Source: Nannocystis bainbridge
Lineage (GTDB): Bacteria; Myxococcota_A; Polyangia; Nannocystales; Nannocystaceae
DNA length: 64,000 nt
Direction of reading: 5' to 3'
Assembly (NCBI RefSeq): GCF_028368995.1
Contig: NZ_JAQNDL010000004.1
Location: 128,001-192,000, forward strand
The notes below the pieces were generated by a model, which saw only the letters and a program-made list of their open reading frames with translations, had not been told where the DNA came from and did not search any database. The translations under genes and the position numbers were made by a program. Below, piece after piece: positions 4,961 to 62,468 of this stretch (the stretch's first letter is position 1; each line of letters opens with the position of its first letter).

Positions 4961-5040
4961 TTCGGGACATGTCGTGGAGGACATGTCCTGAGGGCGAGGT
5001 GCTCGAGGACATGTCGCAGCGGACATGTCCTGAGGGACAG
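4961..5040. repeat. GGACATGTCC 14-bp-period tandem array (5 units) between convergent gene ends
   Basis: ggacatgtcgtgga|ggacatgtcctgag|(degenerate)|ggacatgtcgcagc|ggacatgtcctgag|ggacag; ACATGT cores at 4966, 4980, 5008 and 5022, i.e. multiples of 14. Confidence 0.85.
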
Positions 5041-5046
5041 TCGCGG

Positions 5047-5667
5047 TCAGGGCCGGGGGACGATGGCGTTGGACCGGAGGCCGCGGCCGACCAGGTACTG
5101 CTCGGTGCTGGTGGTCCGCGAGTTCTTGGCGTGGTACGGGCGGGCTTCCTGGAAGCTGGAGCGGAAGCGCTTGAGCAGCTCGCCGAAGCCGCCGCCCTGG
5201 AACACCTTGACGACGCAGTGGCCGCCGGGGCGCAGGACCATGCAGGCGATGTCGAGGGCGCGCTCGGCCAGGCCCTCGCTGCGGACGACGTCGGTGTGCC
5301 GGTCGCCGGTGGTGTGCGGGGCCATGTCGCTGAGGACGACGTCGAACGGGGCGAGCGCCGGGTCCGGGGTCCACTCGAACACGTCGGCGACGCGGTGCTC
5401 GACGTGGGCCGGGAAGCTGAGCACGACCGGCTTGAGGTCGATGCCGAGGACGTAGCCGCTGTCGGTCACGCGGTCGCCGGCGTACTGGATCCACGAGCCG
5501 GGCCAGCAGCCGAGGTCGAGCACGCGCGCGCCCTGACGCAGGATGCGGAACTTCTGGTCGATCTCCTCGAGCTTGTAGACCGCGCGCGCGGCGTAGTTCT
5601 CCTGCTTGGCGCGGAGATAGGCGGCGTCGTTGCGGTGGGTCTTGTCGCTGAGGCGGTGACGGGTCAT
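5047..5667 (-). CDS. rlmE: 23S rRNA (uridine2552-2'-O)-methyltransferase RlmE/FtsJ
   Basis: Full-length FtsJ fold: YRSRAAYKL-like AVYKLEEID, VLDLGCWPGSW, DVVLSDMAP motifs. Confidence 0.9.
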   Translation of the reverse strand: MTRHRLSDKTHRNDAAYLRAKQENYAARAVYKLEEIDQKFRILRQGARVLDLGCWPGSWIQYAGDRVTDSGYVLGIDLKPVVLSFPAHVEHRVADVFEWTPDPALAPFDVVLSDMAPHTTGDRHTDVVRSEGLAERALDIACMVLRPGGHCVVKVFQGGGFGELLKRFRSSFQEARPYHAKNSRTTSTEQYLVGRGLRSNAIVPRP

Positions 5668-5725
5668 GTCGTGCGGCTTAAGCAGCCGAGCCGGCGCGTG
5701 GCCGGCTCGAGCGTGGTGGCTTTAA

Positions 5726-5759
5726 GGGCATGTCTCGAAGGACAGGGCCTTCGAGACAA
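5726..5759. repeat. degenerate GGCATGTC/GGACAGGG repeat unit pair downstream of rplC
   Basis: gggcatgtctcgaaggacagggccttcgagacaa is a member of the same repeat family; it is also an inverted repeat (tctcgaagg...ccttcgaga). Confidence 0.6.
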
Positions 5760-5764
5760 CGACC

Positions 5765-6436
5765 TCAGGCCTTGTTCTTGCCGGCCTTGATGGCGGGCTT
5801 GACGGCGGCGCGGATGGTCACGAAGCCGTTGTTGGGGCCGGGGATCGGGCCGCGCACGAGGACGAGGCCGCGCTCGGCGTCGATCTTGACGACCTCGAGG
5901 TTCTGCAGGGTGACGCGCTCGTGGCCCATGTGGCCGGTCATGCGCTTGCCGCGGTGGACGCGGCCGGGGGTCTTGCGGCAGCCGATCGAGCCGCCGTGGC
6001 GGAAGAACTCGTGCTGGCCGTGGCTGTTCTTCTCGCCCTCCATGTTGTGGCGCTTGATGACGCCCTGGTAGCCCTTGCCCTTGGAGGTGCCGGTCACGTC
6101 GACGCGGGTGCCTTCCTTGAACACGTCGGCGCCGAGCTGGCTGCCGACGGGGTGGGCGGCGAGCGCGTCGACGGGGACGCGGAACTCCTTGTGGACGTAG
6201 AAGGTGCCGACCTTGGCGGCCTCAGCGGCGCCCTTCTCGGGCTTGCTGGCGCGGTTGGCCTTCTTCTCGGCGAACCCGACCTGCAGCGCGTTGTAGGTGT
6301 CGCGCTCGGTGGTGCGGTGGGCGGTGACGGTGTTGCCGGTGACCTGCAGGACAGTGACGGGGACGCGGTCGCCCTCGTCCTTGAACACCTGCGTCATTCC
6401 AAGCTTTTTGGCGATGAGACCGATCTGGAAATTCAT
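5765..6436 (-). CDS. rplC: 50S ribosomal protein L3 family (stand-alone copy, not in an S10 operon context)
   Basis: MNFQIGLIAKKLGMTQVF..., VDVTGTSKGKGYQGVIKRH and HGGSIGCRKTPGRVHRGKRMTGHMG align with E. coli L3. There is no rpsJ/rplD/rplW neighbour. GGAGAG SD lies 6 nt upstream. Confidence 0.85.
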   Translation of the reverse strand: MNFQIGLIAKKLGMTQVFKDEGDRVPVTVLQVTGNTVTAHRTTERDTYNALQVGFAEKKANRASKPEKGAAEAAKVGTFYVHKEFRVPVDALAAHPVGSQLGADVFKEGTRVDVTGTSKGKGYQGVIKRHNMEGEKNSHGQHEFFRHGGSIGCRKTPGRVHRGKRMTGHMGHERVTLQNLEVVKIDAERGLVLVRGPIPGPNNGFVTIRAAVKPAIKAGKNKA

Positions 6437-8170: not shown

Positions 8171-8974
8171 ATGGCTGAGCCCGGAACAGCGAGCGCGGCG
8201 CGCGTCCGCCAGGAAGCGAAGGGTCGCGAGCTGCTGGCCGATTCGGGCGTGCTGTGGAGCGCGCTGCCGGTGGAGTGGCCGCGCGAGGCAGAGGGCGGGT
8301 CGGCCGCGGCGCTGCCCGGGTGGGGCTGGCGGGTGCGTCGCTCGCTGGCGGCGCTGCTGGTGCGGCCGCGACGAAGCTTTCAACACGTCCATGAGCCGGT
8401 CGACCACGGAGCGGCGCTGCGGCTGCTGCTGACGGTGCGCTTGCCGTTGTGGGCGGCGCTGCTGGTCGCGCTGGGTGTTGCAGGCCCGACAGGCGCGGCG
8501 CTGGAGGGGATCCCGCTGTTCGACGCGCACCTGACCGAGGCGCTGTCGCTGTGGTTGTTGCTGATGGTGCCGGTCGGGGTGCCGCTGCTTTACGCGAGCC
8601 TGGGGGTCGCCACGCACGTGGCGCTGGCGCTGACCGGCGGGGCGCCGCGCTCGGTGGCGGCGACGATGCGGGCGGTCGGCTACGCGGTGGCGCCGGCGCT
8701 GCTCGGGGTGGCGCTGCTCGACCTGCCGCTGTTCCTCGGGGTGCTGCCGCTGGCGGCGTACCTCGGAGGGCTCGGGGCGCTGACGCTGCTGACGTTCGTG
8801 GTCGCCGGCAACGCGCTGACCGGGACCCACCAGATCCCGGCGATCCGCGGGTTCGTGGTGGCGCTGGTGCCGGCGGTGATGTTCGCGGCGACGCAGGTGC
8901 TGCGCGGGGTGCTGGCGCTCGGCGAGCTGCCGGGCTATGCGCCGCCGCCGGGGCTGCCGTACCTGGTGCCGTGA
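8171..8974 (+). CDS. Yip1-like polytopic membrane protein
   Basis: Five hydrophobic segments follow a soluble N-region. Start chosen at ATG 8171 (MAEPGT), downstream of the overlapping minus-strand MTase gene. Confidence 0.55.
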   Translation: MAEPGTASAARVRQEAKGRELLADSGVLWSALPVEWPREAEGGSAAALPGWGWRVRRSLAALLVRPRRSFQHVHEPVDHGAALRLLLTVRLPLWAALLVALGVAGPTGAALEGIPLFDAHLTEALSLWLLLMVPVGVPLLYASLGVATHVALALTGGAPRSVAATMRAVGYAVAPALLGVALLDLPLFLGVLPLAAYLGGLGALTLLTFVVAGNALTGTHQIPAIRGFVVALVPAVMFAATQVLRGVLALGELPGYAPPPGLPYLVP

Positions 8975-8975: not shown

Positions 8976-9070
8976 GCTGTCCCTCGTGGCATGTCCGTGG
9001 GGGCATGTCCAAAGGGGCATGGGTTAAACGACATGTCGCCAGGGACAGGGCCCCGGCGACATGTCGTGGA
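8976..9070. repeat. GGCATGTCC/GACATGTCG tandem array (about 6 units) between convergent genes
   Basis: ccctcgtggcatgtccgtgggggcatgtccaaaggggcatgggttaaacgacatgtcgccagggacagggccccggcgacatgtcgtgg. Confidence 0.85.
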
Positions 9071-9092: not shown

Positions 9093-9803
9093 TCAGCCGG
9101 CCTTGGGCGCGGCGGCGGCGTCGGCGGGCACGCCGAGGACCTCCTGGATCGCGGTGTTGAGGCCGGCGAGGTCGGCCGGGGCGACGCCGGAGTACTTCAC
9201 GGCGTTGCGGCCGTCGGCGAACATGACGGTGCGGCTCTTGGTGATGTTGTACCAGCCGTCGAAGGCGTCGTTCTTGCCGCCCTCGTCGGCGGGCACGACC
9301 AGCGGGATGGTGACGCCGAGCTCGGCGCGCAGGGCCTTGACCTTGGCCTCGAGGGCGGCGCGGTCGGCCGTCGGGGTGGTGGCCTTGCCGTCCTTGATGT
9401 CGGTGATGACGGCGAACGCCTTGAGCTTGTCCTCGCCGTACTTCTGGACCAGGGCGTCGAGGTTCTTGAGGTCGTTCTTGAAGGCCTCGTCGTCGATGGT
9501 GCCGACGGCCATGATCTTGGGGCTGCCGCCGAACTTGCAGACCTGGCAGTACTTCTCGCCGCTGTCGCAGTTGACGATCTCGAACGGCTTGAACTTGCCG
9601 CCGACCCCGAGGCCGCTGTCGGCGAGCACGGGCGCCTCGGCGGGCTTGGCCGGGGCGGCCTCGACGGCTTTGTCGGCGGGCGCGGGCGCGGCCGGCTTGG
9701 CGACCTCGGCGGGGGCAGGCTTGGTGGCCGCCTCTCCGCCGCAAGCTGCGGCGAGGATCACGGCGAGGGCGAGGCTCGAGCGAGTGGTGAGCATGGCGGC
9801 CAT
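9093..9803 (-). CDS. hypothetical lipoprotein (LAAACGG lipobox) with a CxxC-containing region
   Basis: Signal MAAMLTTRSSLALAVILAAACGG, a Pro/Ala/Lys-rich linker, then a globular domain with CDSGEKYCQVCKF. Start at 9803 (alternatives at 9794 and 9821). Confidence 0.6.
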   Translation of the reverse strand: MAAMLTTRSSLALAVILAAACGGEAATKPAPAEVAKPAAPAPADKAVEAAPAKPAEAPVLADSGLGVGGKFKPFEIVNCDSGEKYCQVCKFGGSPKIMAVGTIDDEAFKNDLKNLDALVQKYGEDKLKAFAVITDIKDGKATTPTADRAALEAKVKALRAELGVTIPLVVPADEGGKNDAFDGWYNITKSRTVMFADGRNAVKYSGVAPADLAGLNTAIQEVLGVPADAAAAPKAG

Positions 9804-10773: not shown

Positions 10774-10803
10774 AGGGACATGTCCCGGGGGGCATGTCCC
10801 TCG
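10774..10803. repeat. GGACATGTCC repeat pair between convergent genes
   Basis: gagggacatgtcccggggggcatgtccctc. Confidence 0.8.
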
Positions 10804-12770: not shown

Positions 12771-14420
12771 ATGGGTATCATCGCGCCGATGTCGAGCTCT
12801 CGCCGCTCCTTCCTCGCGCTCACGGGGCTCTGTGGCGCCGAGGCGCTCCTCCACGGCCCGCCCGCGGCGTGGGCCGGGCAGCCGCCGAGCCGGATCCCGG
12901 CGCCCAGGTCGGCGCCCGCGAGCGCGGACGCGGGCATGGCCCTGCTGGCGGCGAGCCGCCTGCTGGCCGACGAGCACCTGCTGCGCACGGCCCTGGCGGC
13001 GGCGACGAAGGCGGGGGCGAGCTACGCGGACGCGCGCCTGGTGTCGATGCGGCGCGAGCGGGTCGGCGTGCGCGACGATCACGTGAGCGGGATCGGTCGC
13101 AGCGAGGATTACGGCGTCGGTCTGCGGGTGATCGCGGACGGCGGCTGGGGCTTCGCGGCGACGGCGGAGCGCAGCGCGAAGGCGGTCGAGGGGATCGCCC
13201 GGACCGCGGTGGCGATGGCCCGCCAGAGCGCGCTGCTGATGCCGCAGCCGGTGACGCTGGCGCCGGCGCCGGTGCTGCAGGGCGGGTGGGTGTCGCCGTT
13301 CGAGATCGATCCGTTCTCGGTCGCGCCGGCCGAGAAAGCGGAGCTGCTGCTGGCGGCGGCCCGGGCCGCGCTGGCGGTGCCCGGGGTGGCGCACGTGGAC
13401 GCGAACGTGGCCTGCGTGCGTGAGGAGAAGCTGGTGATGACGAGCGAGGGCTCGCGGGTGCACCAGATCTTCTTCCGCGTGGTCCCGGGGCTGACGGCGA
13501 CGGCGATCGATCGCCGGCGCGGTCGCTTCGCCGGCCGCGACCACGAGGTGGCGGCGATGCTGGCCGGGTGGGAGCACGTGAAGGCGGCCGACCTGGTGGG
13601 CAGCGCGCCGAAGATCGCCGAGGAGGCGCTGCAGAAGCTGCACGCGGCGCCGGTCGAGCCGGGCAAGAAGCACGCGATCCTGGCGCCGTCGAACCTGTGG
13701 CTGACGATCCACGAGAGCATCGGCCACTCGACGGAGCTCGACCGGGCGCTCGGCTACGAGGCGAACTACGCCGGGACGAGCTTCCTCGGGCCGGACAAGG
13801 CGGGCAAGTTCACGATCGGCAGCGAGATCGTCAACCTCGCGGCCGACCGCACGCAGCCGGGCGGGCTGGCGACGACGGCGTGGGACGACGAGGCGGTGGC
13901 GAGCCAGCGCTGGGACCTGGTGAAGAAGGGGAAATTCGTCGGCTGGCAGACCACGCGCGACCTGGCGGCCGCGGCCGGGGAACAGGCCAGCCGCGGCTGC
14001 AGCTACGCCGACAGCTACGCCAGCGTGCCGTTCCAGCGCATGCCGAACGTGAGCCTGCAGCCGGGCAGCGAGGGCTACACGACCGAGGACCTGATCGGCG
14101 CGACGGAGGACGGCGTGCTGATCACGGGCCGCGGCAGCTGGTCGATCGATCAGCAGCGCTACAACTTCCAGTTCTCGGGCCAGTTCTTCTGGGAGATCAA
14201 GAAGGGGCGGCTGACGCGGCCGCTGCGGGACGTGGCGTATCAGGCCAACACGGTCGAATTCTGGAGCTCGTGTGACATGCTCGGAGGGACAGACACGTAC
14301 CGCCTCGGCGGCAGCATGAGCGACGGCAAGGGTGAGCCGTCGCAGAGCAACTCGGTCAGCCACGGGTGCCCGCCGGCGCGCTTCGTCGTCAACATCCTCA
14401 ACACCGGGGGTGACAAGTGA
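12771..14420 (+). CDS. tldD: TldD-family metalloprotease with a twin-arginine (Tat) signal peptide
   Basis: HESIGHSTELD HExxxH motif and TldD N-terminal block SYADARL...GVGLRV. N-terminus MGIIAPMSSSRRSFLALTGLCGAEALLHGPPAAWAG matches S-R-R-x-F-L. GGGAGG lies 4 nt before ATG 12771 (alternative ATG at 12741). Confidence 0.85.
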   Translation: MGIIAPMSSSRRSFLALTGLCGAEALLHGPPAAWAGQPPSRIPAPRSAPASADAGMALLAASRLLADEHLLRTALAAATKAGASYADARLVSMRRERVGVRDDHVSGIGRSEDYGVGLRVIADGGWGFAATAERSAKAVEGIARTAVAMARQSALLMPQPVTLAPAPVLQGGWVSPFEIDPFSVAPAEKAELLLAAARAALAVPGVAHVDANVACVREEKLVMTSEGSRVHQIFFRVVPGLTATAIDRRRGRFAGRDHEVAAMLAGWEHVKAADLVGSAPKIAEEALQKLHAAPVEPGKKHAILAPSNLWLTIHESIGHSTELDRALGYEANYAGTSFLGPDKAGKFTIGSEIVNLAADRTQPGGLATTAWDDEAVASQRWDLVKKGKFVGWQTTRDLAAAAGEQASRGCSYADSYASVPFQRMPNVSLQPGSEGYTTEDLIGATEDGVLITGRGSWSIDQQRYNFQFSGQFFWEIKKGRLTRPLRDVAYQANTVEFWSSCDMLGGTDTYRLGGSMSDGKGEPSQSNSVSHGCPPARFVVNILNTGGDK

Positions 14421-15766
14421 GCGCGACGTCTCCGCTGAGCCCGGCCGAGGCGCGGGCGCTGGTCAAGTCGGCGCTGGCGGCCGCGAGCTTCGAGGACGTG
14501 AGCCTGCGGGTATCGGCCCGCCGTTCGGCGTACCTGCGGTTCGCCGCGGGCGCGCCGACGACGTCGGGCGAGGCGGCGCGCTTCGAGGTGGCGGTGACGG
14601 CGGCGAAGGACGGCCGGGTGGCGACGGTGTCGGGCACGGGCCGCGACACGGCGTCGCTGCAAGCGCTGGTGCGCGAGGCGGAGGCGCTGGCCAAGCTGGC
14701 GCCGCAGGACCCGGAGCACGAGCCGCCGCTGGGGCCGCAGCAGTACGCGAAGGTGGCGGCCCGTGACGCGAAGACGGCCGAGGTCGGGCCCGAGGGCCGC
14801 ACCGAGGTGGTGGCGCGGGTGCTGAAGGTCGCGCGCGAGGCCAAGCTGATCGCGTCGGGGTTGGTCGAGCACGAGGACGCGGTGACGGTGCTTGCAAATC
14901 GCAAGGGGCTGTTCGCGCTGCACGCGGCGACCGAGGCGTCGCTGACGACGACGATGCGCACGGCCGACGGCAAGGGCAGCGGCTGGGCCGGTGGGTCGTC
15001 GTACCGGCTGGCCGACCTCGACGGGCCGACGCTGGCGCGGCGAGCCGCCGACAAGGCGACGATGTCGAGCCAGGGCGCGGAGACGCTGGCGCCGGGGGCC
15101 TACACGGTGGTGCTCGAGGCGCAGGCGGTGGCCGACCTGCTGGGCTTTTTGGTGTCGACGCTGCAGGCCCGCGCGGCCGACGAGGGCCGCAGCTTCTTCA
15201 GCCGGCCCGGCGGCAACGCGATCGGCGAGGCGCTGTTCGACCCGCGGGTGACGCTGCGCTCCGATCCGGCCGACGCGCGCTTTCCTTCGAGCCCGTTCGC
15301 GGGCGACGGGTTGCCGCTGCCGACGACGACGTGGATCGATCACGGGATCCTCAAGGCGCTGGCCTACAGCCGGTTCTGGGCCCGCAAGCAGGGCAAGTCG
15401 CCGCTGCCGGGGCCGCGCTCGATCTTCCTCGCGGCCGCCGATCCGGGCGAGGGCAAGGACCTGCTCGAGCTGATCCGCGGGGTCGAGCGCGGGGTGCTGG
15501 TGACGCGGTTCTTTTACAACCGCATGCTCGATCCGCGGCAGATCCTGGCGACGGGGCTGACCCGCGACGGCACGTTCCTGATCGAGCAAGGGAAGGTGGC
15601 GCGGCCGGTGAAGAACATGCGCTACAACGACAGCCCGGCGGCGCTGCTGAAGAACCTGGTGGCTCTCGGCAAGCCCGAGCGCACGGCCGGCGACGGGATG
15701 GTCACGGTGGTGCCGCCGCTGGTGGCCAAAGACTTCCACTTCGCCAGCGTCAGCGACGCGGTGTAA
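14417..15766 (+). CDS. pmbA: PmbA/TldE-family protease partner, no signal peptide
   Basis: GTG start overlaps the tldD stop (GTGA); PmbA_TldD family C-terminal domain. Confidence 0.8.
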   Translation: MSATSPLSPAEARALVKSALAAASFEDVSLRVSARRSAYLRFAAGAPTTSGEAARFEVAVTAAKDGRVATVSGTGRDTASLQALVREAEALAKLAPQDPEHEPPLGPQQYAKVAARDAKTAEVGPEGRTEVVARVLKVAREAKLIASGLVEHEDAVTVLANRKGLFALHAATEASLTTTMRTADGKGSGWAGGSSYRLADLDGPTLARRAADKATMSSQGAETLAPGAYTVVLEAQAVADLLGFLVSTLQARAADEGRSFFSRPGGNAIGEALFDPRVTLRSDPADARFPSSPFAGDGLPLPTTTWIDHGILKALAYSRFWARKQGKSPLPGPRSIFLAAADPGEGKDLLELIRGVERGVLVTRFFYNRMLDPRQILATGLTRDGTFLIEQGKVARPVKNMRYNDSPAALLKNLVALGKPERTAGDGMVTVVPPLVAKDFHFASVSDAV

Positions 15767-15772
15767 ATTCGG

Positions 15773-15900
15773 GTGTCCTCGCGGACATGTCCGGAGGGGC
15801 ATGTTTGCGGGGGCATGTTCGTTCGGGCATGTCTGTTCGGGCATGTCCGTGCGAGCATGTGAGACCACGCGCCGATCGGCTATGCTCGCGGGCATGTTCG
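15773..15900. repeat. GGCATGT(C/T) tandem array (about 7 units) between pmbA and the acetyltransferase
   Basis: gcggacatgtccggaggggcatgtttgcgggggcatgttcgttcgggcatgtctgttcgggcatgtccgtgcgagcatgtgagacc ... gggcatgttcgtg. Confidence 0.85.
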
Positions 15901-16129
15901 TGATCTCGAGCGCGCTGTTCTTCACGGCGAGCCTCGGCGCGAGGCGGCTCAGGCGGAAGCGGGTGCAGTGCGACCCGGGCGGCTGCGCGCTGCGGTTCTG
16001 AGGCTGAGGGGTCGACGCGGCGCGAGCGGCAGCCGTCGGTGCGGGGCGAGCGGAGGCAGGTTCGGTGCGAGCCGTGCCGCGCCGACCCGTGATTGCGGCG
16101 AGGCCGGGCGGCGGGCAGACTGCGCGCCC

Positions 16130-16756
16130 ATGCAAAATTACTTCGAGAGCCCGTTCAAGGGCCGACTGCTGGCGGAGCAGGTCACCAACCGCAACATCGT
16201 CGTCGGCCGCTTCAGCTACTACTCGGGGTATTACCACGGGCACTCGTTCGACGACTGCGCGCGGTTTTTGATGCCGGACCGCGACGACGTCGACAAGTTG
16301 ATCGTCGGCAGCTTCTGCTCGATCGGCAGCGGCGCGGCCTTCATCATGGCGGGCAACCAGGGCCACCGCAGCGACTGGGTGTCGACGTTCCCGTTCCACT
16401 ACATGCCCGAGGTCGCGGCCTTCGCCGGGGCCCGCGACGGGTTCCGCGGCGCCGGTGACACGGTGATCGGCAGCGACGTGTGGATCGGGTCCGAGGCGAT
16501 GATCATGCCGGGGGTCCGGGTCGGGCACGGGGCGGTGATCGGCAGCCGGGCCCTGGTGGCCAAGGACGTCGAGCCGTACACGATCGTCGGCGGCAACCCG
16601 GCCCGGCCGATCCGCAAGCGCTTCGCCGACGAGCAGATCGCCATGCTGCTCGAGATGGCGTGGTGGGACTGGCCGCTCGAGCGGCTCCACGAGGCGATGC
16701 CGCTGCTGTGCGACGGCGACATCGCGGCGCTGTATCGGTTCTGGAAGGCCGCGTGA
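16130..16756 (+). CDS. Vat-family xenobiotic/streptogramin-A O-acetyltransferase (hexapeptide repeat)
   Basis: [31 protein letters not shown]... is the classic Vat/CatB N-terminus. Left-handed beta-helix repeats ([27 protein letters not shown]) and the C-terminal WDWP motif are present. Confidence 0.8.
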
Positions 16757-16763
16757 GCGCGGC

Positions 16764-17165
16764 TCAGTCGCGGTGGGGCAGGACGACGCGGATCCGCAGG
16801 GCGCCCTCGTCGTCGCGCCGCAGCGCGTAGGTCGAGCGCTCGAGGCCGACCTCGCGGCCGTCCTTGTCGACGAAGGGCCAGCACACGCGCACCAGCACGA
16901 CGCGGTCGCCGACCCACTCGCGCGACTCGACCTCGGGGCGCGTCATCGTCACCCCGCGGTCGAGGTACTGCGCCCGCGCGGCCGCGAAGAAGCGCTCGAT
17001 CTCCTCGCGCCGGGCCACCGCCTGCGCCCCGGAGTCGGCCAGCACGAAGGCCGGCGTCTCGTACAGCGTCGCCACCGTGAGGGCGTCGCCTTCCACCAGC
17101 GCCCGCCCGAGGAGGTTCAGGAACGCGTCGACCTCGCGGTCTCGCTCGGGGTTCGTCGTGGTCAT
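16764..17165 (-). CDS. SnoaL/NTF2-like small protein
   Basis: 133-aa ORF from ATG 17165 (MTTTNPERDREVDAFLN...) with an alpha+beta cone pattern; convergent with the acetyltransferase. Confidence 0.5.
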   Translation of the reverse strand: MTTTNPERDREVDAFLNLLGRALVEGDALTVATLYETPAFVLADSGAQAVARREEIERFFAAARAQYLDRGVTMTRPEVESREWVGDRVVLVRVCWPFVDKDGREVGLERSTYALRRDDEGALRIRVVLPHRD

Positions 17166-17340
17166 GATCGAGGCATTGAGGGTGCTCCTGGACGGGGCAA
17201 GCTCGGGCGGGCCTGCGCGGGCGGCAGGGCGGCTATATTGCCGCGGAGCGCGGTTCTGGGGGGCCGAGCGCAAGGGGCGCGGGGCGGACCAGCGCGCCGC
17301 GAGCGAGGTCGTCGGGGCGCGCGGCCGGGGTCGCTGCGGG

Positions 17341-17460
17341 GGGCGTGTCCGCGAGGACATGAGGGGGAGGTGCGAAAGGACATGTCGTGGTGGACATGTC
17401 GTGATAGACATGTCGTGATGAACATGCCTGATAGGGCATGTCTGAGAAGACGTTCTCGTG
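17341..17460. repeat. GGACATGTCG tandem array (about 7 units, 14-bp period)
   Basis: aggacatgaggggg|aggtgcgaa|aggacatgtcgtggt|ggacatgtcgtgat|agacatgtcgtgat|gaacatgcctgat|agggcatgtctgag. Confidence 0.85.
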
Positions 17461-17475
17461 ACGATGCGTTCTGCG

Positions 17476-17800
17476 GCCGGGGGCGGGCGGCTTCACGGCT
17501 CGCCGAGACCGAGCCTGGCGGATTCTTCCGGGCAGGCGAAGCGGCGAAGGGGACGGCTTCACGACTCTCGGGGCCGGGCCTGGCTGAATCTTCGGCAGCT
17601 GAAGCGGGCGAAGCGGGCGGCTTCACGGCTCGGCGCCGGGCCTGGCGGGTTCGTCGGGCACGCGAAGCGGCTGACTTCACGGCTCGGTGGGGCCGGGCCT
17701 GGCGTTCTACGGCCGGGCGGAGCGGGCGACTTCACGGCTCGGCGGGGCTGGTCCTTGCGGGTTCGTCCGGGCAGGCGAAGCGGGCGAAGCGGCGGGTGAG
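17476..17800. repeat. degenerate 58-66 bp tandem direct repeat, 5 copies, spanning the 3' end of the sigma/anti-sigma gene and its downstream region
   Basis: Units begin cttcacggctcgg(c/t)g...ggccgggcctggcg...gcgaagcgggcga at about 17478, 17541, 17607, 17664 and 17722. Confidence 0.65.
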
Positions 17801-19033
17801 CACCGAGTCGGGCAGGCGGGCGGTCAGGCGGGCGGCGGCGGCGGCGGCGTCGGCCGGGCGGCCTTGCAGGCACAGCAGCTCGATCGCGGCGGCCTCGCGG
17901 GCGTCGACGAGGGCGCCGCGCGGGAACTCGCGGGCGTGGCTGTCGAGCAGCAGGGCGGCGGCGGTCGGGTCGCGGGCGTCGAGGCGAGCGCGGGCGCGGT
18001 CGAGCAGGCCGACCTCGCGGGCGAGGTCGTCGCGGGCCCGCGCGCGGGCGGCTGGCCCGGGGGACAGGTCGGATCCCGTGGCTGTCCCTGCGGACAGGTC
18101 TCGCGCGGCTGTCTCTGCGGACAGGTCTCGCGCGGCTATCTCTGCGGACAGGTTCGACGCTGCTGTCTCTTCGGACAGGTCGGAGGGCGCAGGGTCCTTC
18201 GCGGCGGGCTCGTGGGCACGGTCCTTCGCGTCTGTCTCGTGGGACAGGTCCGAGCGCGCCGGGGCGCCGCGGCCGGGGGCCTGGCGCGGGGCGGCGACGA
18301 CGACCGCGGCGGTCCCGGCGACCAGGAGGGTCGTCATCACCCCGGTGCGGGCGGCGGTCCAGGCGGCGGCGACGGTGGCGAGCTTGCCGTGGCCGAACAG
18401 CGGGACGATCGCGGCCCAGTTGCGCGGGGCGGCCTCGGGCGGGGGCTCGGCGCGGCGGCGGTCGGCGGCGATCTCGGCGACCAGCGGCTCGGGGCCGGCG
18501 GCCAGCTCGAGCAGGCGGGCGCGGGCCAGGCGGAGCCGCGAGTAGACGGTGTTGAGCGGCAGCTCGAGCTCGGCGGCGATCTCGGGGCCGTTCATGCCGA
18601 GCAGCTCGGTCATCTCCCACACCTCGCGGGCGCCGCGGGGCAGGCCGGCGAGCAGGCGCTCGACCTGGCGGGCGGCGTCGTGGCGCTCGTGCGGGGCCTC
18701 GCCGACGTGGCCGGTGAGGTCGCCGAGAGCGGCGATCCGGCGGGTGCGGCGGGCGACGCCGCGGTGCCAGTGCGAGGCGACGCGGCGGGTGACGCCGTAC
18801 AGCCAGGCGCGCGCGGACACCTGGTAGTGGACCTGCTCGAAGCGGCGGTAGGCGGTGAGGAAGACGTCCTGGATCACGTCGTCGCGGGCGGCCGCCGGGA
18901 CGCCGAAGTAGCGGGCGGCGGACCAGACGAAGTTGAACTCGCGGTCGTAGATGGCGCGGAAGCGCGCTTCGCGGTCGGTGGCGAGCAGCATGGGGCCGGA
19001 GGTGGTGTCCCCGGTCGAGATGGATTCCGTCAT
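17732..19033 (-). CDS. ECF sigma factor fused to a C-terminal TM segment and an anti-sigma-like periplasmic domain with 9-aa tandem repeats
   Basis: Sigma-70 region 2 (FRAIYDREFNFVWSAARYFG...DDVIQDVFLTAYRRF) and region 4 (EVWEMTELLGMNGPEIAAELELPLNTVYSRLRLAR), then TM TTLLVAGTAAVVVAAP, then (DLSAETAAR)n encoded by 27-bp repeats at 18050-18250, then a helical C-domain. Start ATG 19031-19033 with GGAGA 9 nt upstream. The Arg/Pro-rich N-terminal extension in the ORF track was rejected. Confidence 0.7.
   Translation of the reverse strand: MTESISTGDTTSGPMLLATDREARFRAIYDREFNFVWSAARYFGVPAAARDDVIQDVFLTAYRRFEQVHYQVSARAWLYGVTRRVASHWHRGVARRTRRIAALGDLTGHVGEAPHERHDAARQVERLLAGLPRGAREVWEMTELLGMNGPEIAAELELPLNTVYSRLRLARARLLELAAGPEPLVAEIAADRRRAEPPPEAAPRNWAAIVPLFGHGKLATVAAAWTAARTGVMTTLLVAGTAAVVVAAPRQAPGRGAPARSDLSHETDAKDRAHEPAAKDPAPSDLSEETAASNLSAEIAARDLSAETAARDLSAGTATGSDLSPGPAARARARDDLAREVGLLDRARARLDARDPTAAALLLDSHAREFPRGALVDAREAAAIELLCLQGRPADAAAAAARLTARLPDSVLTRRFARFACPDEPARTSPAEP
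18050..18250. repeat. 27-bp coding tandem repeat (ctgcggacaggtctcgcgcggctgtct)n inside the sigma/anti-sigma CDS; a CATG-less variant of the GGACATGTCC family
   Basis: About 6 copies, each holding GGACAGGTC and its inverted partner GCTGTC. It translates on the minus strand to S/DLSAETAAR repeats. Confidence 0.75.
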
Positions 19034-20106
19034 CGCGGGTCTCCGAGGTGCAATTCGAGGCCGAGGAGCAGGCGCAGGCTGACCGGGGCGCTGTTGAAGA
19101 GGCCGACCGGCTCGACCGGGTCGGCGAGGTCGAAGCGGGGCGAGGTCAGGCGGACGAGGCCCTGGGCGGCGAGCAGGAGGCCGAGGCGGGGGTGAAAGCG
19201 CCAGGTGGCGCCGGCGGACACGAGCGCGGCCGCCCACAGGCCGGTGGCGGCGCGGGCGCCAGGGCCACGGCCCTCGCCGCGCAGGCCGCCGAGCTCGAGG
19301 CCGCCGCACAGCGGGAACTCGAAATCGCCGCGAAACAGGCGCGCGCAGCCGCGGACGCCGCCGCCGAGCAGGTAGACGCGGACCGCGTGGGGCGGGCGCG
19401 ACTCGGTCTGGGGCACCAGGTGGAGGCCGTGGAACTCGAGGCGGGCCCGCCGCCACAGCACGCCGAGCGCGAGATCGACGGTCGCGGTGGGCGCCGGCAG
19501 GGTGCCGACCTCGAGGCCGCCGGCGAGGCGGAGCAGCATCCCGGGACCGCGCCGGCGCGGCGGTGAGGGCGGGGCCAGCGGGGCCTCGGCGGTGACGGCC
19601 GGGTCGGGCGGCGGCGGCGATGGGGCGGGCGCGGGCGGTTCGAGGCTGGCCTCGGGGCGTGGTGCGAGATCGGGCGCCGGGTCGATCGCGGCGTCGCCAG
19701 GTACCGGGTCGGGCGCGAGCTCGCCGGCTTCGGGCGCTTCGAGGTCGACCGGTTCGCCGCGGGCGGCGACCGTGGGGTCGAGCGCGAGGGCGGCCAGCAG
19801 CGCCGCGGCGTCGACAAGGGCGTCGCAGCGGCGGGCGCCGAGGCGGCGGGCCTGCGTGTGGCCGGCGACGGTGAGGCGCAGGTCGAGGCGGAAATGGGTC
19901 GCGCCGGACCGCTCGACGCGGCCGTCCAGCGCGAGCTCGTCGGGGCCCGGGTCGCGGCCGAGGCGGCGGGCGATCGCCGTGGCGAGCGCGTCCCGGTCGG
20001 GGCAGCCCGCCGGGGCCTGCCACACGGCCGCGGACGCGGACGGGGGCGGGGGCACCTGGAGCGCGAGCGCTGCGGCGAGGAGCGCGGACGGCATCGACGG
20101 CTGCAT
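19030..20106 (-). CDS. hypothetical secreted protein translationally coupled (ATGA overlap) to the downstream ECF sigma gene
   Basis: Signal-like MQPSMPSALLAAALALQ and a Pro/Ala-rich middle. The C-terminal half has alternating hydrophobic pattern suggestive of beta-strands. The stop TGA overlaps the sigma ATG. Confidence 0.45.
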   Translation of the reverse strand: MQPSMPSALLAAALALQVPPPPSASAAVWQAPAGCPDRDALATAIARRLGRDPGPDELALDGRVERSGATHFRLDLRLTVAGHTQARRLGARRCDALVDAAALLAALALDPTVAARGEPVDLEAPEAGELAPDPVPGDAAIDPAPDLAPRPEASLEPPAPAPSPPPPDPAVTAEAPLAPPSPPRRRGPGMLLRLAGGLEVGTLPAPTATVDLALGVLWRRARLEFHGLHLVPQTESRPPHAVRVYLLGGGVRGCARLFRGDFEFPLCGGLELGGLRGEGRGPGARAATGLWAAALVSAGATWRFHPRLGLLLAAQGLVRLTSPRFDLADPVEPVGLFNSAPVSLRLLLGLELHLGDPR

Positions 20107-20212
20107 CCTAGCGCAGGAGGTGTCGGCCGGCTCCGGACCGATCGCGTCGCGCGGCGTGCGCTCGGCGAGAGGGCGCGCGGGCTCGACCGGGCGGCCGATG
20201 AGCATGACCGAA

Positions 20213-20326
20213 CGGACATGTCTCGAAGGACGTGTCCGATCGGTCATGCTCGATCGCGGGGTCGCATGTCCTCGGGGACAGGCGCCCCGCGATTCCGAGG
20301 ATCGCTCGCATGTCCTCAGGGACAGG
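20213..20326. repeat. GGACATGTC/GCATGTCC tandem array downstream of the peroxidase gene
   Basis: cggacatgtctcgaaggacgtgtccgatcggtcatgctcgatcgcggggtcgcatgtcctcggggacaggcgccccgcgattccgaggatcgctcgcatgtcctcagggacagg. Confidence 0.85.
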
Positions 20327-47214: not shown

Positions 47215-47283
47215 GCGCGCACGGTCGCACGATTCGCGCGCCGCGGGAAGGTCGGGCGGGCCGCGAAATCGACCGGTCGAAAC

Positions 47284-47356
47284 GAGATGTCCCCGGGGAC
47301 AGATGATTCTGTCTCCGGGGACATGTCCTAACGTGGCTGTCCCGAGGGACAGGCCA
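47284..47356. repeat. GAGATGTCCCCGGGGACAG / GGACATGTCC array
   Basis: gagatgtccccggggacagatgattctgtctccggggacatgtcctaacgtggctgtcccgagggacaggcc; contains a near-perfect 12-bp inverted repeat ccggggacag...ctgtctccgggg. Confidence 0.85.
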
Positions 47357-50622: not shown

Positions 50623-51810
<1,188 letters not shown>

Positions 51811-52464: not shown

Positions 52465-52541
52465 CTGTCCGTTCGGGCATGCGCGAACAGACAGGTCCTC
52501 CGGGACATGCCCCATGCGGCATGTCCCCGGGGGCATGTCAG
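52465..52541. repeat. GGGCATGC/GGACATGCCC/GGCATGTCC tandem array between convergent genes
   Basis: ctgtccgttcgggcatgcgcgaacagacaggtcctccgggacatgccccatgcggcatgtccccgggggcatgtcag. Confidence 0.85.
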
Positions 52542-55113: not shown

Positions 55114-55743
55114 GTGACCCCCCGCATTCCATTCCTTTCATGCATCGCTCTGGCCGCGTGCCTGGGCCTCGCCTGCGCCGACGACAAGGACCCGCTCGAC
55201 TCGGTGACCAACCCGACGGCCGCGAGCGACGCGAGCAACGCGTCGAACGCCTCGAACGCGTCGAACGCGAGCAACGCGTCGAACGCGACCAACGCGAGCA
55301 ACGCGACCGACGACGGCACCGACACCGGTGAGACCAGCGACACCGGCGTCGACGAGACGACCGGGCCGACGTCGGGCGAGCCGACCACCAGCACGACGTC
55401 GGCCGAGACGACGTCGGCCGACACGACCGCGGCCGAGACGACCAGCACGACCGAGCCGCCGCCGACCGACGGGCCCGGGGTGCTGCCCGGCGAGGACGGG
55501 ATGCAGGCGTTCTGCCGCCGCTACAAGGAGTGCGGCGGGACCTACTACGGCGATCAGCAGGAGTGTCTGGACGAGACGTACGGCTACTGGGGCGACTGCC
55601 CGTCGCGCAAGGCGGCGCTCGACGAGTTCGGCGCCTGCATGTCGGAGCTCGACTGCGGCGAGTGGAACCCCGACGCCTACAACCCGAACAGCACGCCGTG
55701 CGCGCGGCAGTGGGCCGGCGTCCAGCAGGCCGAGTCCTGCTGA
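55114..55743 (+). CDS. hypothetical lipoprotein with (ASN/ATN) nonapeptide-encoding tandem repeat and a 6-Cys C-terminal domain
   Basis: Lipobox LGLAC; 55230-55310 is (gcgagcaac gcgtcgaac)n; the C-terminal domain is CRRYKECGG...CLDETYGYWGDC...CMSELDCGEW...C. Confidence 0.6.
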   Translation: MTPRIPFLSCIALAACLGLACADDKDPLDSVTNPTAASDASNASNASNASNASNASNATNASNATDDGTDTGETSDTGVDETTGPTSGEPTTSTTSAETTSADTTAAETTSTTEPPPTDGPGVLPGEDGMQAFCRRYKECGGTYYGDQQECLDETYGYWGDCPSRKAALDEFGACMSELDCGEWNPDAYNPNSTPCARQWAGVQQAESC

Positions 55744-55751: not shown

Positions 55752-55808
55752 AGGGACATGTCCCCCGGGACCTGCCCTCAAGGGCATGGCTCCGGGGACA
55801 TGTCCGAT
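55752..55808. repeat. GGGACATGTCCCCCGGGAC / GGGGACATGTCC array overlapping the 3' end of the methyltransferase CDS
   Basis: agggacatgtcccccgggacctgccctcaagggcatggctccggggacatgtccgat. Confidence 0.85.
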
Positions 55809-59586: not shown

Positions 59587-59776
59587 CGGGGCGGGCGGAG
59601 AAACCCGCGAGGTCTCGCGGGTGATGGCGAGGCGTGCGTGCGACGGGTCGTGGTTCGTCGACCTCGCCACGGGGCGATGCGCACGTGGGCCCCAGGGTGC
59701 TTGCAGTCGTCCTGTGAAAGCGAGCGATCGTCGGCGCGAACACGTCGGTTGACGGCCGCGATCGGGCCTCGCTAGC

Positions 59777-61324
59777 GTGGCCGACGGGATGGGATTGTCC
59801 GTGAAAAACAACGTATTCGGCCGCGTCGCGCGGCTCTGTCTGCTCTTGCCGGTGGGCGCGTGCGTGTGGACGCCGAACAGCCGCACGTCCCACGAGTCGA
59901 GCGCCGCGATCTCGATGCAGGGCTACGCGGCGACCTCGGGCTCGGCGGTGCAGCTGCTGGCGAGGAACTGGAACTCCGGGGCGTTCGAGCTGGTGGACAC
60001 GGCGACGGCGTCGACCTCGGCGTCGTTCACGGGGCCTGACATGTACGCGTGGTCGAAGACGCTGTCCCTGGCGGCGAAGTTCTGGCGGCCGGATCAGGCC
60101 GGCTGTTCGGCGGGGCGCGCCGAGATCCGGGCGGTGGCCGGCGGCGATCCGTTCAGGACGTTCACGGACCCGGCGGGGCGATGCGCGTTCGATAAGGTCG
60201 TCATCGACGGCGAGCACCCGGCCGCGGCCGGCAACGCGTGCTCGGACGGCGACGAGGTGATCCTCTTCGACAACAACGGGACCTGCGGGGTGGCCGAGAC
60301 GGGCGGGCTGGCGACGGTGTACGGGCCGGTCACGGGACCGATCGACGGGGTTTCGGTGACTTGGGAGGTCGTCAGTTATCCGGTGCAGGGCAACACGATC
60401 TACGGGCTCATCTGTCGCCCGAGCGCGGCGGGGGCCCATCCGGTGCAGATCTTCAACCACGGCGGTTGGTGGGGCCTCGGCTACGGCGGCGAGCCGGAGG
60501 CCTGCGGCAAGTGGGCGGCGAAGGGCTGGGTGGTGGCGATGTCGAGCTACCGCGGCGAGCGCCTGCACCTGGGGCCGAGTCACAGCTGGAAGTCGGGCGG
60601 CAGCGTGGAGCTCTGCAACGGCGAGGTGACCGACGTGCTGCGCATGACGGATCTGGTGCTGGCCAAGCCGTACGCCAATTCGTCGAAGGTGTTGATGCAC
60701 GGGCTGTCGCACGGCGGCTGCATCACGACGCGGGCGGTCCAGCGCGGGGCGCCGGTGCAGGCGGCGATCGACGTCGCCGGGCCGAGCGAGTGGGCGTCGC
60801 TCTACGCGTCGCTCGGGTGGTGGCTGGTCGGGGCGTTGCCCACCGATCCGCCGACGACGCCGTTCCCGACGCTGATGGCGGGCTGGGTCGGGACGCCGTC
60901 GCTGGTGCCGCGCGCGTACGAGTGGCGCTCGAGCAAGTTCGTCGCGGAAGACCTGGCGGCGCGGACCGACGTCAAGTACCTGCGCATGCAAGGGACGGCC
61001 GATACGATCGTGCCGCCGGAGCACGCGTGCAAGCTGGCGAAGGCGGCGTTCGGCTCGGCGGGCAGCAAGAACTGGCACTTTAATAATGCCGCCGGGGTGA
61101 CGCCGGTGGCGCCGACGGGGTGCACGGCGACGGACGCGAGCCTGACGTGGCAGAGCGGGGCGAAGCCGACGACGAGCTGGCCGGACAACCGCTATGTGTT
61201 CGTGTACGACGCGCTGCCGCACGTGGTGGTGCCGGGCGACGGCACGCCGCCGGCGGTGGCGAACGCGTTCGGGGTCGATTACACCAACTTCGTCAATGCG
61301 CTCAATTGGGGCGTGGTGTACTGA
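59777..61324 (+). CDS. alpha/beta-hydrolase (S9/dienelactone-hydrolase-like) lipoprotein
   Basis: Lipobox LLLPVGAC; nucleophile elbow GLSHGG; C-terminal TADTIVPPEHA (Asp/His region). Confidence 0.65.
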   Translation: MADGMGLSVKNNVFGRVARLCLLLPVGACVWTPNSRTSHESSAAISMQGYAATSGSAVQLLARNWNSGAFELVDTATASTSASFTGPDMYAWSKTLSLAAKFWRPDQAGCSAGRAEIRAVAGGDPFRTFTDPAGRCAFDKVVIDGEHPAAAGNACSDGDEVILFDNNGTCGVAETGGLATVYGPVTGPIDGVSVTWEVVSYPVQGNTIYGLICRPSAAGAHPVQIFNHGGWWGLGYGGEPEACGKWAAKGWVVAMSSYRGERLHLGPSHSWKSGGSVELCNGEVTDVLRMTDLVLAKPYANSSKVLMHGLSHGGCITTRAVQRGAPVQAAIDVAGPSEWASLYASLGWWLVGALPTDPPTTPFPTLMAGWVGTPSLVPRAYEWRSSKFVAEDLAARTDVKYLRMQGTADTIVPPEHACKLAKAAFGSAGSKNWHFNNAAGVTPVAPTGCTATDASLTWQSGAKPTTSWPDNRYVFVYDALPHVVVPGDGTPPAVANAFGVDYTNFVNALNWGVVY

Positions 61325-61489
61325 TTCGCGCGAGATGAGCGATCGCGGCGCGGCGCGCGAGCGGAGCGTGGGCCGCGAATCGTGTGACGGCATGATGCAT
61401 GCGACCACGAGGCGCGGCGAGGGCTGCTGATCCGTGGGCTGCTCGAGCTTCGCAGTCCTCCGCGTCCGGCGGATCCTTGCCGTACGGTG

Positions 61490-62317
61490 CTAGGATTCGC
61501 GGCCGGTCAGGCGGGCCGTCTGCGAGCCCATGAGGGCGACGGCGCGCCGGCGCGGGAACAGGCGCCCGAGCACGAACGCGGCCACCTTGTTGAGGCCGCC
61601 GGGCACGGCGCTGGGCGGGCCGCCGAGGGCCTCCAGGGCCTCGGCGACGACGGCGTCGGGCTCCATCGCGCGCGGGCCGTCGGGGCCGCTCGAGCGCTCG
61701 AAGCCGGGGGTGCGGGTGGCGCCGGCGCAGCAGACGAGGACGTCGACGCCGCGCGGGCCCAGCTCGTACCACAGAGCTTCCCCGAGAGACAGGTTGAAGG
61801 CCTTGCTGGCGCCGTAGGTGGCGACCAGCGGCGAGCCCCAGAAGGCGGTGAGCGAGGACATGAGCAGGAGGCCGCCGCGACCGCGCTGGACGAGGCGCTC
61901 GCCGAACACGTGGGCGGCGATCAGGGGGCCGCGACAATTGACGTCGACGATCTTGAGCTTGTCGGCGAGCGGGACGCCGAGGAACGGGCCGACCTGCGAC
62001 AGGGCGGCGTTGTAGACGCAGAGGCCGACGTCGAGGTCGCGGGTGAGGGCGGCGAGGACCTCGGCGAGGTCGGGGGCGGCGAGGTCGAGGGCGGCGGTGC
62101 GGACCTCGACGCGGGCGCGCAAGGGCGAGGCGACGGCCTCGAGGGCGTCGGCCCGGCGCGCGAGCAGGAGGAGGTTGAGGCCGCGCTCGGCGAGGCCGCG
62201 GGCGAAGGCGGCGCCGAGGCCCTCGGAGGCGCCGAGCACGACCGCCCAGGGGCCGTACTTGAGGGCGAAGGCGGAGTGGTCGATGGTCGGGTCGGACACG
62301 CGCGGGCAGGAGAACAC
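61490..62317 (-). CDS. short-chain dehydrogenase/reductase (SDR)
   Basis: VVLGASEGLG cofactor loop, NAA motif, and YGASKAF catalytic Y-x-x-x-K. Confidence 0.8.
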   Translation of the reverse strand: MFSCPRVSDPTIDHSAFALKYGPWAVVLGASEGLGAAFARGLAERGLNLLLLARRADALEAVASPLRARVEVRTAALDLAAPDLAEVLAALTRDLDVGLCVYNAALSQVGPFLGVPLADKLKIVDVNCRGPLIAAHVFGERLVQRGRGGLLLMSSLTAFWGSPLVATYGASKAFNLSLGEALWYELGPRGVDVLVCCAGATRTPGFERSSGPDGPRAMEPDAVVAEALEALGGPPSAVPGGLNKVAAFVLGRLFPRRRAVALMGSQTARLTGRES

Positions 62318-62349
62318 GCCGAGGGGAGGCAGGGCAAGCCGGAACGCGT

Positions 62350-62468
62350 GGCTTCGAGGATATGTCCCGAGGGACAGGTCATCGCAGGTCGATTGGCTTC
62401 AAGGTCATGCCCTGAGAGACATGTCCGTGCGGCGCGAATCGCGTAATGACATGTCTTGAGGGACATGT
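62350..62468. repeat. GATATGTCC/GGGACAGGTCA/GAGACATGTCC/TGACATGTCT/GGGACATGTCC array (about 6 units) between the SDR and the propeller lipoprotein genes
   Basis: gatatgtcccgagggacaggtcatcgcaggtcgattggcttcaaggtcatgccctgagagacatgtccgtgcggcgcgaatcgcgtaatgacatgtcttgagggacatgtccttcag. Confidence 0.85.

Follow-up and report, generated by a model that had tools for sequence, protein, structure and literature searches.

A Nannocystis-specific family of 14-bp inverted repeats forms exact head-to-tail arrays around gene 3' ends

A 64,000-nt stretch of the Nannocystis bainbridge genome (assembly GCF_028368995.1, contig NZ_JAQNDL010000004.1, positions 128,001 to 192,000; hereafter the window, numbered from its first letter) carries a dense, dispersed family of short palindromic repeats. 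The elementary unit is a 14-bp inverted repeat, (CC)TGTCC-N4-GGACA(GG), which occurs in one to about seven copies joined exactly head to tail, mostly in gaps that contain gene 3' ends. The family is specific to the genus Nannocystis, in which, by extrapolation from the sampled density, several thousand units would be present in each genome of 11-13 Mb, and it has apparently not been described before. On balance, the arrays probably represent a miniature palindromic repeat that proliferates and gives rise to hairpins at the 3' ends of genes, similar to repetitive extragenic palindromes (REPs) and the bacterial interspersed mosaic elements (BIMEs).

The original prediction regarded the perfect 10-bp palindrome GGACATGTCC as the basic unit of the family. 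This decamer is present in the window in 14 copies, whereas dinucleotide shuffles contain 0.07 on average and never more than 1, and the inverted repeat TGTCC-N4-GGACA occurs 15 times where 0.03 copies are expected. No shuffle reaches these counts, and a dense dispersed motif family, as originally proposed, is thus confirmed. The TGTCC/GGACA inverted repeat with any other spacer from N0 to N9 has zero copies in the window. The decamer is nevertheless not the basic unit, because CATG is missing from single units. Nannocystis DNA amounting to 769 kb contains 198 good copies of the inverted repeat that have CATG at neither side; CC precedes and GG follows them, and their consensus, ACC-TGTCC-YNNR-GGACA-GGT, has no CATG inside. 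The outer ends of arrays show the same CC/GG flanks as the isolated units. Since single units are CC/GG-flanked and array ends look alike, an array consists of n abutting 14-bp inverted repeats, and the decamer, GGACA joined to TGTCC, is the junction of two abutting units. The two central bases of the loop are random, and only a symmetric rule is observed, the first base being rarely A and the last rarely T; the loop is often common to adjacent units of one array.

The head-to-tail arrangement is strict. Period-14 arrays were recognised by Tandem Repeats Finder at positions 4965, 8988, 9029, 15811, 17378, 20209, 26029, 28448, 32008 and 35696, and the distances between RCATGTY cores within window clusters are 14, 28 or 42 bp, with two exceptions (30 and 44 bp); the 14- or 28-bp spacing reported earlier therefore stands, with 42 bp to be added. 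In the 769 kb of Nannocystis DNA successive palindromes are spaced by 14 bp in 242 cases, about 90 of which arise by construction as the loci were picked with an N5 pattern, by 13 bp in two cases and by 15 bp in one. The census of the window gave 33 clusters, about four of which are probably chance singletons, and one variant array at 26029. All of the 24 coordinates listed in the original prediction carry at least one unit. Its estimate of two to seven tandem units per locus does not hold for some of them, those at 5726, 23143, 34060 and 44697 being single hairpins. The CATG-less variant reported at the same time is real and recurrent: it differs by one base in the junction (GGACAGGTCC / GGACCTGTCC), also forms arrays at the 14-nt period, and occurs at at least nine other loci. 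An interpretation of the array at 26029 as consisting of half-sites only was dropped, as it is built of this one-base G-variant of the full unit.

The loci of the window are as follows (no strand is assigned except where one is given).
4956-5039: array of about six units (four palindromes), ending 8 nt 3' of the rlmE/ftsJ stop (5047-5667, minus strand).
5726-5749: single hairpin TGTCT-CGAA-GGACA in a 97-nt gap between two minus-strand genes.
8978-9066: array of four hairpin units (five palindromes), filling the convergent gap between 8447-8974 (plus strand) and 9093-9803 (minus strand).
10776-10799: one hairpin made up of two palindromes, in a convergent gap.
15774-15857: array with six to seven CATG cores, beginning 8 nt past the stop of the pmbA/tldD-like gene (14417-15766, plus strand).
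17341-17443: array of about six units, 3' of the gene for an extracytoplasmic function (ECF) sigma factor (17732-19033, minus strand).
18053-18251: G-variant hairpins CTGTCYC-TGCG-GACAG at a 27-nt period, in the C-terminal extension of the ECF sigma open reading frame (ORF), with 9-aa repeats in frame.
20205-20324: two units plus two extra hairpins, the latter a 44-bp duplication, in a gap flanked by minus-strand genes.
23148-23166: single perfect hairpin TGTCC-CGAA-GGACA, 3 nt 3' of the ogt-like stop (23164-23484, minus strand).
26029-26094, plus strand: direct array with a period of 14 nt, composed of five G-variant units (GGGACAGGYGCTTC) and filling the gcvT-gcvH intercistronic gap; conserved in N. 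pusilla.
28425-28499: array of five units, beginning 18 nt past the stop of the plus-strand gene 27376-28407.
31718-31736: single hairpin in the nadE-pcm intergenic region.
32008-32077: array beginning 12 nt past the nadE stop (32081-34057, minus strand).
34062-34094: hairpin in the 22-nt gap between the prs-like gene and nadE, with a GGACATGTCC overlapping the end of the upstream ORF.
35689-35828: array in the IucA/IucC synthetase ORF (35024-36892, minus strand), in the interdomain linker, translated as DMS..TFP..GH(A/V)P.
36696-36728: two units in the N-terminal part of the IucA/IucC ORF; TGTCCCTTCGCACA is conserved in four species.
37432-37459: two units within the ORF of the TauE/SafE permease (37049-37756, minus strand).
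38629-38656: one perfect palindrome with degenerate neighbours, inside the ORF 38503-39216 (plus strand).
39335-39395: about three units in the gap 5' of the NMT1_3 gene (39381-41663, plus strand), overlapping its start.
42150-42177: pair of units in the CAP-domain ORF (41848-42927, plus strand), N-terminal region, with conservation in three other species.
42982-43028: degenerate array of three palindromes in a convergent gap.
44700-44723: perfect hairpin TGTCC-CGAG-GGACA, flanked by half units, in a convergent gap of 45 nt.
47283-47351: three well-formed, non-abutting hairpins, 3' of the PD40 beta-propeller gene (47357-49438, minus strand).
52466-52540: array of three hairpins (four palindromes), filling a 78-nt convergent gap.
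55754-55805: array overlapping the N6/N4 DNA methylase ORF at its 3' end, in a convergent gap of 34 nt.
62358-62479: cluster of four hairpins (six palindromes) in the gap between two minus-strand genes.

The genes of the window are ordinary chromosomal ones. The gene map, made by codon-usage scoring, contains 52 genes (82% coding), 42 ORFs were scanned against Pfam, and the genes found include bipA/typA, rlmE, a tatD-type DNase gene, tldD/pmbA, gcvT-gcvH, nadE, pcm, the IucA/IucC synthetase gene and the ECF sigma factor gene, among others. On this map the elements are present in seven of the ten convergent gaps, the three empty ones being 7, 10 and 165 nt long, and in 14 of the 31 co-directional gaps, while the ten divergent gaps (3.2 kb in total) hold chance-level single matches only. 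Across 90 loci, convergent gaps account for 209 units, co-directional gaps for 245 and divergent gaps for 29. In three syntenic loci with database gene calls, where the DNA is 88-90% coding, 30 units are intergenic, 14 are in coding sequences and none is in a divergent gap. About 30% of units are inside ORFs, and their concentration in non-coding DNA containing gene 3' ends is about 15- to 20-fold; one quarter of the units in co-directional gaps lie at most 20 nt from the upstream stop codon. The placement described in the original prediction, namely in convergent gaps, directly 3' of genes and in several cases within reading frames, was thus recovered with real genes.

Canonical terminators comprising a hairpin and a T-run were found in the window at chance level only, with one convincing case, located after bipA in an array-free gap. 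The terminator scan caught a single repeat unit, by chance, and the flank logos of the units contain no T-run or U-tract. The bipA case belongs to a different repeat: a 48-nt unit in 2.5 tandem copies (1625-1749), just 3' of bipA/typA, carries the only strong canonical terminator of the window (14-bp stem and T-run, minus strand), and this gap has no 14-bp array.

Transcripts of the arrays are predicted to fold strongly, with energies from -32 to -65 kcal/mol and z-scores from -3 to -7, neighbouring palindromes pairing into predicted G+C-rich hairpins of 10-17 bp without a U-tract. The values are -41.6 kcal/mol (z -5.6) for the array at 4956-5039, -57.7 kcal/mol (z -5.5) for that at 8978-9066, -64.8 kcal/mol (z -7.0) for that at 15774-15857, and -48.2 kcal/mol (z -7.2) for the three hairpins at 47283-47351.

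Comparison of orthologous sites describes arrays that appear to persist in place while whole 14-nt units are gained and lost. The region 15135-22800 can be aligned with a locus of Nannocystis sp. RBIL2 at 83-91% nucleotide identity, and the IucA/IucC protein has 83-84% amino-acid identity to its counterparts in N. punicea, N. pusilla and N. exedens. After the pmbA-like stop there are about seven units in the window and about four to five in RBIL2; at the 17341 site, about six units correspond to one hairpin in RBIL2; and at the 20213 site two units are common to both genomes, while two more hairpins, the 44-bp duplication, are present in the window only. Past the nadE stop, the first unit is found at the same place in four species, with loops that all differ, and the number of hairpins is about three to four in the window, two in N. 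punicea, one in N. pusilla and one in N. exedens. The hairpin in the 22-nt gap between the prs-like gene and nadE is nearly identical in the four species. Interspecies identity is 50% in the loops and 80% in the rest of the alignable intergenic DNA, which fits unit turnover. The check for copy-number variation suggested in the original prediction, run here between species, therefore gave a positive result, unit number at orthologous sites being different. Because independently assembled genomes (N. punicea, N. pusilla, N. exedens and RBIL2, at least five Nannocystis species in all) have the same arrays at orthologous sites, an assembly artefact is excluded; together with the counts never reached in shuffles, this leaves a virtually negligible probability for chance or artefact as the source of the family.

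Some of the sampled loci show additional features. In a convergent gap of an N. punicea locus (L100, 1532-1760) the hairpin TGTCCTCACGGGCA occurs five times at a period of 42-60 nt, as a longer-period repeat carrying the unit inside, and repeats of about 65-70 nt carrying the unit are located 3' of nadE in L100 and L102. In the N. pusilla locus each of three genes (prs-like, NMT1_3 and CAP) is broken into two ORFs, unlike in N. punicea and N. exedens; this is probably a frameshift error of the assembly and not biology.

One case of the repeat within a protein-coding gene is the array at 35689-35828, located in a bona fide siderophore synthetase where a linker joins its IucA_IucC and FhuF-like domains. 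The peptides encoded by the array (DMS, TFP-TCP and GHV-GHA) correspond to GGACATGTCC read in its three frames, with a period of 42 nt. In an alignment of 15 orthologues the insertion occupies from about 18 to 75 columns in the sequences near the window, varying among Nannocystis; it is shorter in two deeper-branching sequences and absent in the orthologues of Nannocystaceae and Enhygromyxa. The DNA of all four species still shows recognisable units, which are decaying. Further units were found within the ORFs of the TauE permease, the CAP-domain protein (N-terminal part) and the ECF sigma factor, where they make up a 27-nt/9-aa repeat within the C-terminal extension. The presence of units inside ORFs suggests the behaviour of spreading DNA, rather than that of sites evolved in place for a local function.

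The taxonomic range was established by an exact-pattern scan for two units in one genome per species (185,579 species, 596 Gb). It yielded at least 99 stretches; among the matches listed, about 84 are in named Nannocystis, six in one metagenome-assembled genome (MAG) of the Nannocystaceae, and the rest are singletons in unrelated taxa. The Nannocystis with listed matches are N. exedens, N. pusilla, N. punicea, N. radixulma, Nannocystis sp. RBIL2 and MAGs. In loci chosen by gene and not by motif, four Nannocystis have 0.55-0.87 units per kb, whereas one Enhygromyxa MAG and two other related MAGs of the Nannocystaceae have 0-0.09. Nothing comparable was found in viral contigs, which contain two unrelated single matches, and the window has no match in Rfam at or above the gathering score. 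A Bryobacter MAG (5855-5900 of the sampled locus) was considered as a second lineage and rejected, because it has one lone operator-like site, GGACATGTCCGTCCGGACATGTCTTGTCCGGACGGACAT, located 5' of a small ORF in DNA of 55% G+C; it shares the decamer by chance and is unrelated to the Nannocystis family. The searchable literature contains nothing describing Nannocystis repeats, and the decamer turns up there only as a p53 half-site, a coincidence of sequence.

Several other repeats are present in the window. One is a 293-nt inverted repeat (28580-28872 and 29726-30018) with arms that are 95% complementary and enclose 853 nt, within the region 28496-30159; its outer parts are tandem repeats of 50-64 bp, no confident gene was called between 28408 and 30173, and the structure could represent another type of repeat element, or else a segment capable of inversion or foldback. 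At 17483-17787, in the gap on the 3' side of the ECF sigma gene, tandem repeats of 55-62 bp (about three copies each) directly adjoin the 17341 array. The hexanucleotide ACGAGC occurs in about 22 copies at 50818-51004, nested in periods of 18-51 bp within the ORF 50638-51810 (plus strand), and probably encodes a low-complexity dipeptide-repeat region. In-frame tandem repeats of 9, 18 and 27 bp are located at 55221-55451 within the ORF 55114-55743 (plus strand).

Among known systems, the Nannocystis family most resembles the GTAG- or CGTC-tagged REPs, REPINs and BIMEs known from enterobacteria and pseudomonads. Like these it consists of short G+C-rich palindromic units present in hundreds to thousands of copies, which are lineage-specific and clustered, lie in gaps with gene 3' ends, are rare in divergent gaps, vary in copy number among relatives, and are predicted to form hairpins without a U-tract in RNA or single-stranded DNA. 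The differences concern the length of the unit (14 bp against 20-40 bp), the arrangement, as Nannocystis units abut at exactly 14 bp while REPs alternate in orientation with variable linkers, and the abundance, since density is several-fold higher in Nannocystis and some 30% of its units are in ORFs. The definition of REPs also includes a conserved GTAG or CGTC tetranucleotide at one end (PMC3733652). No such tag is seen in the logos of 198 isolated and 526 array units, whose flanks are CC/GG or CA/TG. With respect to miniature inverted-repeat transposable elements (MITEs), which are 50-500 bp long against 14 bp here, the units have no terminal inverted repeats, target-site duplications, flanking direct repeats or ends similar to those of insertion sequences, and no transposase was found among the 42 Pfam-scanned ORFs of the window. 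The assignment to a REP/MITE-like family made in the original prediction is thus upheld in part: the family is dense, genus-specific, associated with 3' ends, variable in copy number and sometimes located in ORFs, but the GTAG/CGTC tag, terminal inverted repeats and target-site duplications are lacking, and in the 0.99 Mb searched no REP-associated tyrosine transposase (RAYT), the Y1 HUH enzyme whose gene is flanked by the repeats in REP systems, was found. It is best read as REP-like in behaviour, with an architecture of its own, and not as a member of a known family.

Other families share single traits. Intrinsic terminators differ from the Nannocystis hairpins in having the U-tract that the latter lack. 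Rickettsia palindromic elements (RPEs), which are about 100-150 bp long, are also lineage-specific and located in frame, being translated in permissive regions; unlike the Nannocystis repeats they do not form 14-bp tandem arrays and are not concentrated at gene ends. They were treated together with REPs by Di Nocera et al. 2013 (PMC3733652). The uptake signal sequences (USS) and DNA uptake sequences (DUS) of Haemophilus, Actinobacillus and Neisseria are genus-specific motifs of about 10 bp, present about once per kb, whose inverted pairs make hairpin stems at 3' ends, and USS dyads act as terminators in H. influenzae and A. pleuropneumoniae (PMC5217627). In contrast to the Nannocystis unit, USS and DUS motifs are non-palindromic, occur in coding as well as non-coding DNA, form no phased arrays and are enriched by biased DNA uptake, being taken up preferentially by the competence machinery. 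The highly iterated palindrome HIP1 of cyanobacteria (GCGATCGC / GGCGATCGCC) is likewise a hugely over-represented perfect palindrome of 8-10 bp found in one lineage. HIP1 copies are isolated, frequent in coding DNA, unphased and not tied to gene ends. Cooperatively bound tandem operators (the metboxes of MetJ, the iterons of omega and ParR) have the geometry in common with the arrays, being short palindromic or oriented units in head-to-tail order with a fixed non-helical period and 2-10 units; they differ in serving one or a few promoters or centromeres per replicon, and do not occur at thousands of gene ends or in ORFs.

If the arrays are indeed a proliferating REP-like repeat, their life cycle may be envisaged as follows. 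New sites would be seeded rarely, by insertion of a unit, and the arrays would then grow and shrink by whole 14-nt units through slipped-strand mispairing, aided by the self-complementary junctions. Neighbouring palindromes would pair into hairpins on transcripts and on transiently single-stranded DNA. Such hairpins could block 3' exonucleases, thereby protecting transcript 3' ends, and could pause or partly terminate RNA polymerase moving in either direction, decoupling neighbouring cistrons. This activity would explain why the repeats are tolerated or retained at gene ends and purged from 5' regions. The uniformity of the arms would come from common descent, or from copying by a sequence-specific agent, and not from independent selection for pairing.

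A number of observations weigh against this interpretation. No credible RAYT was detected by tblastn with E. coli RayT over 0.99 Mb of sampled DNA (the window and about 105 loci); the lone match (E = 0.09), inside a methyltransferase ORF, was discarded as spurious. The role suggested for the arrays at the RNA level is inferred by analogy with REPs, BIMEs and USS-dyad terminators. A lone unit would have a stem of 5 bp only, and the direct array of G-variant units at 26029 is not predicted to fold (z -0.2), yet its 14-nt period is kept and conserved. Flanking positions (-1 to -7 against +14 to +20) are no more complementary than expected and show no covariation; double arm mismatches affecting one base pair were seen 26 times against 23 expected, eight of them giving Watson-Crick pairs, so no compensatory signal is present. 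Conservation of the arms is position-specific, the C and G of CATG being nearly invariant and the loop-closing pair poor, and the strict N4 spacing looks more like sequence recognition than a generic hairpin. The loops (UUCG against CGAA, GAAA against UUUC) have no orientation bias relative to the upstream gene or its transcription. Arm identity between species (0.79) does not exceed that of other alignable intergenic DNA (0.80), indicating no extra conservation, in a test biased downwards because the window units were chosen as near consensus. The uniformity of the family is hence one of sequence and not of selected pairing, and calls for common descent, copying or a sequence-specific reader.

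Arm changes that would give G.U pairs served as a test of RNA sense. The C>T and A>G transitions are strand-asymmetric, but the asymmetry per array tracks local GC skew (Mantel-Haenszel p = 0.0007) and gene direction only marginally (p = 0.058). The window, of 72% G+C, has a positive GC skew (0.07-0.24) in all 4-kb bins, yet about two thirds of its genes are on the minus strand; in the sampled loci, gene sense strands are slightly rich in C (third-position skew -0.19). Because GC skew is followed far more than gene direction, the asymmetry is explained by mutation bias, and G.U wobble was rejected as evidence of an RNA sense owing to this confounding.

A less probable but serious alternative, in line with the array-forming binding site already offered in the original prediction, is that the dyads are recognised in the duplex, as binding sites of an abundant Nannocystis-specific dimeric protein that occupies abutting dyads cooperatively, in the manner of MetJ, omega or ParR, and marks gene 3' ends, serving as a roadblock terminator, an insulator, or an entry site for topoisomerase or condensin. 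Such a protein would account for the strict N4 spacing and 14-bp phase with free central bases, the symmetric position-specific conservation and the symmetric loop rule (position 1 not A, position 4 not T), the CC/GG flank preference without complementarity, the missing compensatory changes, and the period of variant direct arrays that do not fold. The 14-bp period had been cited in the original prediction against a phased binding array; this argument is weak, as 3 x 14 = 42 bp corresponds to four helical turns of B-DNA. On the other hand, the arms are conserved no better than neighbouring intergenic DNA and unit number drifts freely between species. The in-frame, decaying arrays in enzyme linkers and membrane proteins have no obvious use for such a protein, and several thousand sites demand a very abundant one, for which no candidate was identified. 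We know of no genome-wide 3'-end-marking protein of this kind in bacteria. An uptake-signal-like motif, enriched by biased uptake and recombination, with inverted pairs that double as terminators, is quite improbable. It would agree with a genus-specific 10-12-mer at about one per kb, with inverted pairs at gene ends and copies in tolerant parts of ORFs, and USS dyads are on record as terminators (PMC5217627). However, exact 14-bp head-to-tail arrays are not typical of USS or DUS, the motif itself is palindromic, the IucA/IucC case is an insertion and not an accumulation of point changes, and the intergenic bias is very strong. Moreover, natural competence has, to our knowledge, not been documented in Nannocystis.

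Highly improbable is the view that each gene end has acquired an ordinary factor-independent terminator hairpin by itself, the similarity among them being convergent. The 3'-end location, the strong predicted hairpins and the scarcity of canonical terminators speak for it, but thousands of copies with the same arms and exact N4 spacing contradict it, because independent origin cannot yield one sequence; compensatory variation and the U-tract are missing as well, copies lie in ORFs, and only one genus is concerned. A HIP1-like iterated palindrome, tied to a CATG or ACATGT methyltransferase or to mismatch repair, is very doubtful too. Its merits are a 10-bp palindrome at about 0.5 per kb with a nearly invariant CATG core, and the occurrence in the window of an N6/N4 DNA methyltransferase gene (PF01555; 55778-57052, minus strand), whose 3' end is overlapped by an array and which is relevant to this possibility only. 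Yet the units are 15- to 20-fold intergenic and phased while HIP1 is isolated in coding DNA, single units have no CATG, and CATG (266 in total) is near compositional expectation, by our own estimate, outside arrays. Finally, it is conceivable, if unlikely, that the arrays are more than selfish hairpins and are the cis-element of a sequence-specific system peculiar to Nannocystis. This would be either a dimeric protein reading the dyads in duplex DNA and punctuating 3' ends throughout the genome, as a roadblock terminator, an insulator or a site of supercoil relief, or an HUH-type enzyme by which 14-nt hairpin units are inserted at CA^TG. Insertion at CA^TG would recreate CATG at both junctions and so give self-propagating arrays in exact phase. 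Such a system, if real, would represent a mechanism not described in bacteria.

Should the interpretation as a proliferating, hairpin-forming palindromic repeat be correct, the Nannocystis family would be among the densest and smallest families of its kind known. Its exact head-to-tail architecture makes it tractable to ask how REP-like DNA spreads and remains uniform, whether through a copying enzyme, slippage alone or selection, and what role such repeats have at the gene ends of high-G+C bacteria, where canonical hairpin-and-U-tract terminators are largely missing. The repeats are likely to confuse gene callers, as they translate into GHV, DMS or TCP peptides in either orientation, and they create length-variable linkers in real proteins and potential hot spots of slippage or recombination. 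They may be of use as strain-typing markers, and as compact bidirectional terminator or insulator parts for the engineering of natural-product myxobacteria.

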